A stretch of 64,000 nucleotides of DNA from a virus (Duplodnaviria; Heunggongvirae; Uroviricota; Caudoviricetes). Location of the stretch: the IMG/VR virus record IMGVR_UViG_2651869782_000025, one strand, 5' to 3'. Position numbers: made by a program. This document shows, one piece after another, positions 52,701 to 55,700 of the stretch; within the stretch, counting starts at the first letter, position 1, and each line of letters begins with the position of its first letter.

Positions 52701-55700
52701 GTGCCCTCGCGCATCCAGTAATCCTGACGCCAGTAAGAGCCACTCAGGTATGTGCCATCAAAACGGTGCGACAAACGCGCCTCATATCGGGAACGCTGAC
52801 CACCGTAGCGCGCATAGCGCCAGATATCTTTCGGGTTAAAGTCAGCAAATTCCACATACCCTTTACTCTGGTAACGGTACGTCAGTAACTGTAGGTCGGT
52901 CCGATCTGTAAAGCTCTTTGCGTATTTGGCACTGAAGCTTTCCCCTGTTTTCACTTCCCCGTTGTCATAACTGGCCTTTGACACGTTCGCACTGAGCGAT
53001 AATGCCCCCAAGCCACCCAGCATCTGTGTGACCCCCAGGCCACCGGCCTGATAGTCATCATTCAGAATGAATGCTGAGTTCAGTGTGGTTGTGGAGAAGC
53101 CATAGTCCAAGCTACCCAACCAGAACAGACCGGTATCAGAATGAAACGCCTTGTCCAGTTCGTTGCTGTTATTCTTCTTCCCCACCGCCACGTTGTACTG
53201 AAACTCTCCAGGACGCAGCAGCGTCGGCAGCGTGGTGACCGGATAGACCTGCTCGGTTTTGTTACCACTTTCATCCTCAACGGTCACCACTAGATCACCG
53301 TTGCCCATTGGACGAAGGTCATCAAGATGATAAGGTCCTGCTGGTACCATTTTTGAATAAACTGTATATCCGTTCTGTTTCACAGTAATACGCGAAGGAG
53401 TGGAAGCGATACCCGAGATGTCCGGCGCATACCCCCTTGATTCCCAAGGGCGCATATTACTGTTGGAGCGAAGAGCTGCACCGTAAAAATTAAAGTCAGA
53501 AAAAAGCTCCGTACGGGTTTGTGATTTTCCCAGCAATAGATCTCCCTGAACCTGACTGATGGCCGTGGACATGGTCAGGTCACTGGAGGTGAATTCGGTT
53601 TTATCACGTTCATGAGACACGTTCATGTTACTGGAGAGTACCCAGCGCCCCAGGTTGATGGCAGCATCAAAATTCCCAAAGGCATTAACATCATCATGAA
53701 CGTTTTTATTGAAGTTACTGTAATATTTCAGGCGTCCACCATTCACGCCATAATCCCAACGAGCGGGGTCTGTTTTACTAAGCAAATAAGCCTGAGGAAT
53801 ATTTAAATTCAGCGCCTGCGCACCGTAATCAAAATCAACCAGCGTATGGGACTTCTTCGCTAGGAGATAGCACCCTTTGCCTTCATCAAAAACATCATGG
53901 TAGACATCCTTATTCAACATCACCCCTGCCTTTTCCAACCATTCAGGCGAAAAGCAGAGCATGTCATTTCGTTCTTCTTCCTTGCTAATATTCAGACCAA
54001 GCCGCCCCGTGCGTTCTTTATTCACAGTAACATCAACTATATATTGTCCTTGAGGATAAACAGTATCGCTTTTGAGTATCGATGGAATAACACTAATGCC
54101 CTGTATGAAATCGAGATTTAGTTCTTCTGCAAGACTGAAGTGGGAATACCATATACTCAGTGCTAGCAAAGATATTCTTGGAAATCTTTTTAATACCATA
54201 AGATCACCTTATCACACTCCAGTGAAATCAAAGGCGCGGCCTAGAGACCATATTAATAAAAATTCAAATAAATATATGTCCGGGAATTTCCTCCCGGACA
54301 TAAGTTAGCTATTACTCATAAGTAACAGTATAAGCTGCTGCAGTCTCAAAAGTACCAGCAGTTTGCCCAGCATTTAATTTGGCTTTATATCCAAAACCAT
54401 CGGCAGCGGTAGTAATATTGAACGTAACTTTATTATTTGTACTAGTAATAGCATTGACATCTGTAGTAGTATTGGTACCGCTTACTGCTTTGAGCTCTAC
54501 CCAAGAACCAGTTGCCGAACCAGACTGGTTTTCAATCCCCTGAGTGCTAAAGTTAGGAGAACTCCACTGGAAATGAGCTTTCGTCAAAGCATCTGCGCAA
54601 GTTGGATCTGCAAATTTAACTGAGAAATTTTTCTCAGATGTAGCTCCTTTATTCACAGTACCAAACTGAATCAGGTCGCTTACAGCGCCACCTTCGTTAA
54701 CAACGATATCACAAGTAGCGGCAGCAACAGTTCCCACAAACTGAACCTCGCCATGAGAACCTTTGTCACCCAAGGCAGCCATTGCAGAACCTGCAGTCAT
54801 GGTCATTGCAATTGCAGAGGCAATCATTAATTTTTTCATCTTATAAAGCTCCGTGATTACTGAATTAAATTAATTGAGCATGAAATTACAGGACACATAT
54901 AATGATGTGTCGCTACTTTCTCCCCAAATAAAAGAAAATAACGCCACCCCATCTATATACGCCTACAACATATATGCACAACATTAATTCGTTATACTAA
55001 GATTGCGTTTATCATTGTCATCAGCAATAAAACCGAACTAGTTTTGATACACTCCTTTCCACTCTAAGCAAGCGTCCGACACATACACTCAAATAACCAG
55101 CATTAACTCCATATCTTTCACAGACAACCTTACGTGAATCTCCCAGGACAAGATGGTCGTGCATAGCCAAAATAACCTTTTGACTATGAATTGAAGAAAG
55201 CTCAACTAATAAATCAAACTGCTCACCTGAAAGAGTTCTCCCACCCATAATAAAAGGGTTACCGTCCCACCGATAGTTAGAAGGATCAATACTATTATAG
55301 TTAGACATTATATTCCCCTGCTGTGTTCTTGCTTTCAAAACCAAGAGAAATACGTCACGTGAAACTTGCTGCTTATTTTATTCAGCATCAAACTCTGTTC
55401 AATAGTTTTTTCACGATCTTTTTAGCTACACCAACAGGTTATACTAGAATAATATTCTGATATACAAATTAAATACAGTATAATCACCCAGTACAAGCAA
55501 TAATCATCAAGATAAAATGATAGTGTAGTAAGTAAAAACGATCTTTTATCCTTTTTTTAAAAATCAAAAACAACGTTTATATTTTTTATAAATAATCTAA
55601 ACAAATAAATCTTATCATCACTAATAAAACCTGATTACCACTCCATTACCAACACAAACATTCATGAACATATCAATCAAACCAATATCCCATACCACAA

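Follow-up and report, generated by a model that had tools for sequence, protein, structure and literature searches.

Can a temperate element carry, together with a fimbrial operon, the heritable on-off switch by which fimbrial operons of the Pap family are controlled? The question is raised by IMG/VR virus record IMGVR_UViG_2651869782_000025 (Uroviricota; Caudoviricetes), a P1-like phage-plasmid whose dmt region is 96-98% identical to those of P1 and P7. The stretch of this record that was analyzed, hereafter the window, is 64,000 nucleotides (nt) long, and its minus strand bears an operon headed by a gene for a PapB-family regulator. Two GATC sites upstream of this gene had been proposed in the initial annotation as a Dam/Lrp phase switch of the Pap type. 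We consider it probable, at roughly 0.55, that the region 55370-55560 controls a Pef-family fimbrial operon and constitutes a Pap/Pef-type Dam-Lrp switch of new geometry, which would be operated by the Dam and Lrp proteins of the host.

Two GATC boxes upstream of the fimbrial regulator

The regulator gene (55021..55308, minus strand) encodes a protein of 95 amino acids which matches the PapB family profile (PF03333; E-value: 4.3e-27; 94 bits against a cut-off of 29) and is ~90% identical to Escherichia albertii regulators annotated as members of the PapB/FocB family. It is the first gene of its operon, with its ATG at 55308 preceded by AGGGGAA. The upstream DNA is AT-rich, as the initial annotation had observed, with a G+C fraction of 0.26-0.27 over 55350-55799. 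From the ATG to ~55870, GATC occurs only at 55415 and 55540, each time within a copy of CGATCTTTT on the plus strand (55414-55422 and 55539-55547); these copies had been placed about 125 bp apart, and the start-to-start distance of the two GATCs is exactly 125 bp. Their contexts had furthermore been called near-identical. This holds for a shared 10-mer, ACGATCTTTT (55413-55422 and 55538-55547), but the identity ends there, with T versus A as the next base and C versus A as the preceding one, and the description was to that extent somewhat overstated.

The proximal box (55413..55422, minus strand; CTAAAAAGATCGTGAAAAAA in the regulator's sense) has its GATC at 55415-55418, 110 nt 5′ of the regulator ATG and 12 nt 5′ of a -35-like hexamer, and is covered by the Lrp-like 15-mer CGATCTTTTTAGCTA (55414-55428; centre 55421). 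The distal box (55538..55547, minus strand; ATAAAAGATCGTTTTTAC in the regulator's sense) has its GATC at 55540-55543, 235 nt 5′ of the ATG, and is covered by the Lrp-like 15-mer CGATCTTTTATCCTT (55539-55553; centre 55546). Both boxes read AAAAGATCG in the regulator's sense, so that the distal box is oriented the same way as the proximal one and the two form direct repeats. The box of pap, TAAAAGATCGTYTAAAT, is matched at 13/17 positions by the proximal and at 14/17 by the distal box. An A4+ tract precedes both boxes, a context in which GATC has been reported to be a poor Dam substrate (PMC4417163).

Two GATCs might also have come to lie in AT-rich DNA, with flanks that resemble each other, by accident: by a rough estimate, ~1-2 GATCs are expected per 560 bp at this composition. 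Of the 9-mer CGATCTTTT, the window contains three copies, the expectation being 0.70. The 10-mer ACGATCTTTT, however, is likewise present in three copies where 0.21 are expected, a number reached in none of 100 shuffles, and the box matches a known functional one and is conserved across clades at a fixed spacing. Because of this conservation and of the homology to pap and pef, coincidence can be regarded as refuted, and the probability left to it is negligible.

An extra GATC is located at 55284-55287, 21 nt into the regulator coding sequence. It is confined to the window and the sequences nearest to it, the E. albertii clade and three of the near-identical metagenome copies having GATT instead, and for this reason is unlikely to be part of a switch.

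Conservation of the control region

The 16 copies of the locus that were retrieved represent 13 distinct sequences, which fall into two clades, one including the window and the other formed by E. albertii plasmids. The clades are ~73% identical over positions -260..+30 and align without any indel. The proximal GATC is present in all 13 distinct relatives and the distal GATC in 12 of them, and wherever both sites occur (12 relatives) the 125-bp spacing is kept. When the consensus sequences of the clades are compared, 13-14 of 15 positions are identical in the two GATC sites, in a relic of a canonical distal box and in a promoter-overlapping site (the latter two are described below). Both promoter hexamers are identical at 6/6 positions and invariant in 13/13 relatives, while the linkers between the sites are identical at only 29/65 positions (45%). 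Conserved sites set in diverged linkers at a fixed spacing point to selection on the sites and on the distance between them, and the pattern supports the view that both boxes are under purifying selection.

The relative without a distal GATC is the plasmid of E. albertii 2012EL-1823B (NZ_CP030784.2), in which this GATC is destroyed (AAAATATCAATTTTA, TATCA) but neither the proximal box nor the spacing is altered. Judged by the GATC mutants of pap, this allele could be a phase-locked variant.

Lrp-like sites, promoter-like site and relic box

Lrp-like sites were scored on both strands against the E. coli consensus yAGhAwATTwTdCTr (PMC5554404), and the best array of six sites was sought over all phases and over periods of 30.5-32 bp, with dinucleotide shuffles serving as the control. 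The best array of the window consists of Lrp-like sites centred at 55390, 55421, 55452, 55483, 55515 and 55546 (-82, -113, -144, -175, -207 and -238 relative to the ATG), spaced at 31-32 bp, and passes through both GATC boxes. Its score of 68 compares with 58.9 +/- 1.9 for the shuffles, of which 1/400 reached it; the score of pap is 62 and was reached by 6/400 shuffles.

The site nearest to the gene (55383..55397, minus strand; centre 55390; CAGAGTTTGATGCTG in the regulator's sense) matches the consensus at 12/15 positions and is 14/15 identical between the clades. It is flanked by the -35-like and -10-like hexamers of a promoter-like site, TTGAAC-16 nt-TAAAAT (55375..55402, minus strand), which was identified by consensus matching and reads towards the regulator gene; in published descriptions, site 3 of pap is likewise placed between the -35 and -10 hexamers. 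This is the sole minus-strand promoter-like site in 55250-55950, a region in which the number of such sites is not above chance. A simple promoter scan misses the known weak papBA promoter, and the promoter comparison with pap was as such made by manual alignment.

Between the two boxes lies a perfect predicted Lrp site (55445..55459; centre 55452; TAGAATAATATTCTG / CAGAATATTATTCTA), the only 15/15 match to the consensus in the 64 kb. It also fits the pattern AGAATwwwATTCT, and its centre and that of the proximal box are 31 bp apart. Its homologue in the E. albertii clade scores 12/15. The fourth site of the array (55476..55490; centre 55483) matches at 11/15 positions and is less conserved, with 9/15 positions identical between the clades.

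The fifth site (55508..55522, minus strand; centre 55515; 11/15; TATCATTTTATCTTG in the regulator's sense) is a relic of the canonical distal box. It came to light in an alignment of all loci anchored on the proximal GATC, for which the control regions of the pap, pef and fae operons and of operons from E. marmotae, Edwardsiella and S. diarizonae were compared; that of the window can be aligned over its whole extent with those of pap, pef and the four other canonical loci. The relic aligns with the sequence CGATCTTTTAT(G/T)CTG of pap and pef, its GATC being replaced by TATC (CATC in the other clade) and an extra A. Where pap and pef have (A/G)CGATCTTTTAT, the window accordingly reads CTATCATTTTAT and the E. 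albertii clade ACATCATTTTAT. It is situated 104 bp from the proximal GATC, with the GATC-bearing distal box 21 bp further out, and with 14/15 positions identical between the clades no other block of the spacer is as well conserved. We infer that the relic is the equivalent of 'site 5' and that the GATC-bearing distal box occupies the next register, 31 bp outward. The boxes are separated, centre to centre, by 93 bp (3 x 31) in pap and by 125 bp (4 x 31) in the window, both whole multiples of the inter-site distance, and flipping an asymmetric box shifts the GATC relative to the centre of its site; the two boxes would thus stand in register with each other.

Proposed mode of switching

From the arrangement of these elements, their conservation and their homology to pap and pef, we infer that Lrp would bind the control region, that the two GATCs would be differentially methylated and that expression of the operon would be phase-variable. 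Occupation by Lrp of the three promoter-proximal sites, which bracket and overlap 55375-55402 and of which the middle one carries the proximal GATC, would occlude the promoter and shield the GATC at 55415-55418 from Dam, giving the OFF state. Occupation of the three distal sites would shield the GATC at 55540-55543 and allow the proximal GATC to be methylated; this methylation would disfavour the rebinding of Lrp and free the promoter, giving the ON state. Either methylation pattern would be inherited through replication. The distal GATC would act from the outermost site of the array, with its box flipped, the canonical middle distal site having lost its GATC. As the element encodes no protein of the PapI/PefI type, Lrp would have to bring about switching by itself or together with PapI homologues encoded by the host chromosome.

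Departures from the Pap-family signature

The published signature of the family, to which the switches of pap, sfa, daa, fae, clp and pef belong, comprises two boxes 102 bp apart and a PapI-like protein (PMC2909390), and the TAAAAGATCGTYTAAAT elements of pap are described as lying 'in opposite orientations' (PMC4417163). The GATC spacing is 102 bp in pap, pef, E. marmotae and S. diarizonae and 103 bp in fae and Edwardsiella, and all six of these canonical loci have CGATCTTTT as the distal and AAAAGATCG as the proximal box in the regulator's sense, an inverted pair. When the DNA upstream of PapB-family genes was surveyed in species-representative genomes, two loci were obtained, both canonical (102 and 103 bp; inverted), and the survey as a whole is a small one of six canonical loci and two box-less afa-like loci.

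Several observations weigh against a switch at the locus of the window. With boxes 125 bp apart and in direct orientation, it lies outside both the signature of the literature and the range of the 6/6 canonical loci. In searches with PapI and PefI (tblastn), neither the window nor a complete related plasmid of 96.6 kb gave a match with an E-value better than 0.27. No match to the CRP site at 8/10 or more half-site positions was found in the control region, where the pap control gave 9/10. Matches to the Lrp consensus at 10/15 or more positions are common in AT-rich DNA, the array score of the E. albertii clade (63; reached by 31/400 shuffles) is weak or marginal, and the promoter is a putative one, assigned by consensus match and conservation only. 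Furthermore, one natural relative is without the distal GATC, which would accordingly not be indispensable.

These departures would also be expected of a promoter that is regulated without a heritable choice between two states. Its promoter-proximal half alone would then be pap/pef-like, responding to Lrp, probably to H-NS and to methylation of a Dam-sensitive proximal GATC, while the distal box would be a conserved site for Lrp or H-NS at which methylation is irrelevant, and expression would be graded or set by the environment. The replacement of the canonical distal GATC by TATCA or CATCA in the relic fits this explanation, as do the aberrant spacing and orientation, the relative that lacks the GATC at 125 bp and the want of a PapI-like protein that could move Lrp to the distal sites. 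Graded regulation does not, however, account for a distal GATC that is kept with its A/T flanks in 12/13 relatives across two clades with linkers 45% identical, for an inter-box distance free of indels in every relative, or for the position of the distal box exactly in the register of the 31-bp array; the missing co-regulator need not abolish switching either, as PefI is described as a repressor. We hold graded regulation to be conceivable but doubtful.

The Pap-family switch suggested by the initial annotation is thus borne out in some of its parts and not in others. In its sequence, the locus has a PapB-family regulator heading a Pef-family operon, two conserved GATC boxes of the family type, and a proximal layout in which the GATC lies in an Lrp-like site next to a promoter-like site, with another Lrp-like site over the -35/-10 region. 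It has neither the spacing of 102-103 bp nor the inverted boxes of the family, nor a locally encoded PapI-like co-regulator, departures that the initial annotation had not mentioned. We would not file the locus as a standard member of the Pap family, but it most likely works like one.

Search for a PapI- or PefI-type partner

The tblastn searches were accompanied by a positive control, in which PapI and PefI recognized each other with an E-value of 2e-6, and a Pfam search of the small open reading frames (ORFs) of the island gave no match to the PapI/PefI family. An ORF at 55872 (MSALVLEYLL...) resembles PapI by eye, but has no Pfam match, whether taken by itself or fused with the following frame. 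The truncation of this ORF is a different one in E. albertii, and from 55934 onward the DNA is a remnant of an IS3-family element. A divergent papI-like gene 5′ of the regulator was rejected, this position being taken by the IS3 remnant and by small ORFs without similarity to PapI or FaeA. A downstream PefI, as in pSLT, was ruled out by tblastn, by the Pfam scan of small ORFs and by the search of the whole related plasmid. A PapI homologue could be supplied by the host chromosome. The PefI protein of pef has been described as a repressor (PMC12388093), and the lack of a PefI-type gene would for this reason not necessarily disable a Pef-type switch.

The dmt gene and other GATC clusters

Enterobacterial hosts supply their own Dam, and the host Dam is the relevant enzyme. 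The window nevertheless encodes dmt (8502..10506, plus strand), the bifunctional C5-cytosine and Dam-like (D12-class) methyltransferase of P1, and the initial annotation had considered that this enzyme could influence the switch unless a frameshift inactivates it. The frameshift is real: relative to P7 dam, dmt has a 14-bp deletion at ~10189-10192 and a stop at 10199, before DPPY. The DPPY of the window (~10230-10247) is in another frame than the part that binds S-adenosylmethionine, tblastn splits the gene into two frames, and the match to MethyltransfD12 covers profile positions 1-151 of 253. A read error is an unlikely source of the 14-bp deletion. Furthermore, a C1 operator 5′ of dam and a late promoter are annotated in the P7 record, and dmt would therefore be silent in the plasmid state even if it were intact.

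Control of the switch by the dmt of the element could be argued from the D12-class adenine methyltransferase domain encoded in the window and from the intact gene (672 amino acids) of the E. albertii relative pESA138_1. The deletion, however, means that DPPY is not translated together with the S-adenosylmethionine-binding part, the C1 operator and late promoter imply repression in the very state in which fimbriae would matter, and a Dam of the host is already at hand. The proposed influence of dmt is not plausible as an input; for the window it is largely refuted, and we rate it as very improbable.

GATC is clustered elsewhere in the window. The third copy of ACGATCTTTT, at 36781, belongs to a cluster of eight GATCs in 185 bp (36655-36839) within an ORF at 36461-37654; the cluster is probably the Dam-regulated pac packaging site of P1 in pacA. 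Five GATCs in 55 bp (4921-4975) adjoin an ORF of 286 amino acids (3861-4721) and presumably mark P1 oriR beside repA, while three GATCs at 8-bp steps (42519-42535), located 5′ of an ORF of 343 amino acids (42865-43896), probably represent the methylation-sensitive cre promoter region of P1.

The fimbrial island and its setting

Downstream of the regulator gene, the operon continues on the minus strand with a PefA-like major subunit of 175 amino acids (54312..54839), which matches the PefA model NF011761 (E-value: 5e-28) at 98 bits against a cut-off of 227 and is 36% identical to PefA of pSLT. It is followed by an intact usher of the PefC/AfrB family with 805 amino acids (51782..54199; NF011760; 1093 bits against a cut-off of 752), which is 58% identical to pSLT PefC over its full length, and by a periplasmic chaperone of 230 amino acids (51097..51789) with PapD_N and PapD_C domains (PRK15211/NF011758; 370 bits against a cut-off of 248). 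By these scores, the usher and the chaperone qualify as equivalogs of PefC and PefD. The set is completed, on the same strand, by a FedE-like minor subunit (50577-51134), a DsbA-family oxidoreductase (49692-50333) and a secreted protein of 308 amino acids to which no family was assigned (48354-49280). As the major subunit falls below the equivalog cut-off for PefA and shares only 36% identity with it, the operon is to be classed by its sequence as a relative of pef and not as pef itself.

The minus-strand island extends over 47600-56244, where P1 has its anti-restriction gene darB. Of darB itself no more than ~157 bp at the 3′ end survive (56244-56400; 91-92% identity to darB of P1, P7 and RCS47), with the remnant of an IS3-family transposase gene (55934-56216; 74% identity to IS3-family transposase genes) on one side and the portal gene on the other. 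A gene for defence evasion has in this way been exchanged for an adhesin operon.

Twelve P1-like plasmids of E. albertii have an island ~85% identical in the corresponding position, and the E. albertii plasmids with such relatives include some from human stool and from wild-bird cloacal swabs. The E. albertii RM strains, whose plasmids bear the island, have been sequenced with PacBio technology (PMC10673567). IMG/VR and metagenome contigs, among them one that derives from a human gut metagenome, hold nearly identical copies, and an identical regulator is encoded on at least 24 contigs of public assemblies, while the island is absent from 5,426 complete E. coli genomes. We found no publication on the island or its regulation, and the E. 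albertii records are annotated only generically.

The position of the island next to an IS3 remnant, with a former upstream part lost, is what would be left if the operon had been captured from a Pef-like ancestor together with a switch already in decay, the boxes persisting because the lineages are young and the operon being silent or off. The lack of a PapI-like gene, the unannotated major-subunit gene of one E. albertii plasmid and the restriction of known copies to two clades also agree with an inherited relic of this kind. Against this, all operon ORFs are full-length in the window, the control region is a mosaic of conserved sites and fast-evolving linkers with indel-free spacing, which neutral decay is not expected to leave, and the regulator is identical on many public contigs. 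We consider such a relic unlikely.

In a side observation, the window also carries a gene for an IS200/IS605-family TnpB protein (402 amino acids; 59222-60430), inserted 3′ of the head-processing gene. The insertion is annotated also in the E. albertii plasmid p2RM15115, but not in pESA138_1.

Significance of the locus

The Pap switch is a textbook case of bacterial epigenetic inheritance. A conserved version of it with a 125-bp spacing, a flipped box, a relic of the canonical box and no papI would amount to a natural test of the geometry which the competition between Lrp and Dam needs, and would bear on whether PapI is dispensable or borrowed from the host. Only tentatively do we go further and propose a working Pap-type switch that breaks both rules of the signature, with a distal site in direct orientation at 4 x 31 bp and no local PapI, carried as cargo in place of darB. 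If this is true, lysogenic conversion would confer heritable, phase-variable fimbriation on the host, and a phage-plasmid with an adhesin operon and a candidate phase switch is of relevance to the ways in which temperate elements change host colonisation. Should the switch turn out not to work, what is left is a Pef-like promoter of the ordinary kind that has diverged.

Comparison with known Pap-family systems

Close counterparts are the E. albertii P1-like phage-plasmids, such as pESA138_1 and p2RM15115, in which the same island is integrated between the mat/pmg region and the portal gene. Their boxes lie at -110 and -235, as in the window, to which they are ~85% identical overall and ~73% identical in the control region. 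They differ from it in the distal box (TCGATC against ACGATC), in the central Lrp site with its score of 12/15 and in an intact dmt. Outside the clade, the nearest regulators (65-71% identical), one on a plasmid of Shigella and the other in an afa-like operon on a plasmid of E. coli, are without upstream GATC boxes. The phylogeny of the regulator and the type of switch are therefore not tightly coupled, and these nearest outside regulators gave no clue to the origin of the 125-bp arrangement.

The pef operon of Salmonella enterica pSLT (pefBACD-orf5-orf6-pefI) shares with the window the order of regulator, subunit, usher and chaperone genes and a DsbA-family gene in the region. Control of pef by Dam and Lrp has been established experimentally (Nicholson & Low 2000, as cited in PMC6844306; also PMC12388093). 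The proximal AAAAGATCG is at -113 in pef, against -110 in the window and -109 in pap, in the same orientation throughout, and neither pef nor the window has a CRP site. Three GATCs precede pefB: GATC I, in inverted orientation, is found 102 bp further upstream than GATC II, and an additional GATC X 12 bp downstream of GATC II; the window, in contrast, has TATCA at the 102-104 bp position and its GATC at 125 bp in direct orientation. The pefI gene lies downstream of the pSLT operon, and has no homologue in the window.

In pap, the best array is centred at -81, -112, -143, -174, -205 and -236, and it too passes through both boxes and has one site between the -35 and -10 hexamers. The positions of sites 1-6 were here derived from the pap sequence and secondary sources (PMC4417163 among them), according to which sites 2 and 5 contain the GATCs and site 3 covers the promoter. 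The arrays of pap and of the window share one register, and their first five centres correspond closely (-81/-82, -112/-113, -143/-144, -174/-175 and -205/-207), and the perfect predicted Lrp site at 55445-55459 is the positional equivalent of the pap site at -143. The GATCs of pap are 102 bp apart and in opposite orientation, whereas the second GATC of the window is placed one register further out. The divergent papI gene and the CRP site of pap are both missing from the window, which has the IS3 remnant upstream instead.

In the region 112-143 nt 5′ of the annotated faeB start, the fae (K88) operon has, in addition to its inverted pair at 103 bp, a third box in direct orientation exactly 31 bp from the proximal box, a distance equal to the inter-site spacing of the Lrp-like array. 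This third GATC provides a precedent for GATCs in neighbouring Lrp registers, the extra box of fae lying on the promoter side and that of the window beyond the distal site.

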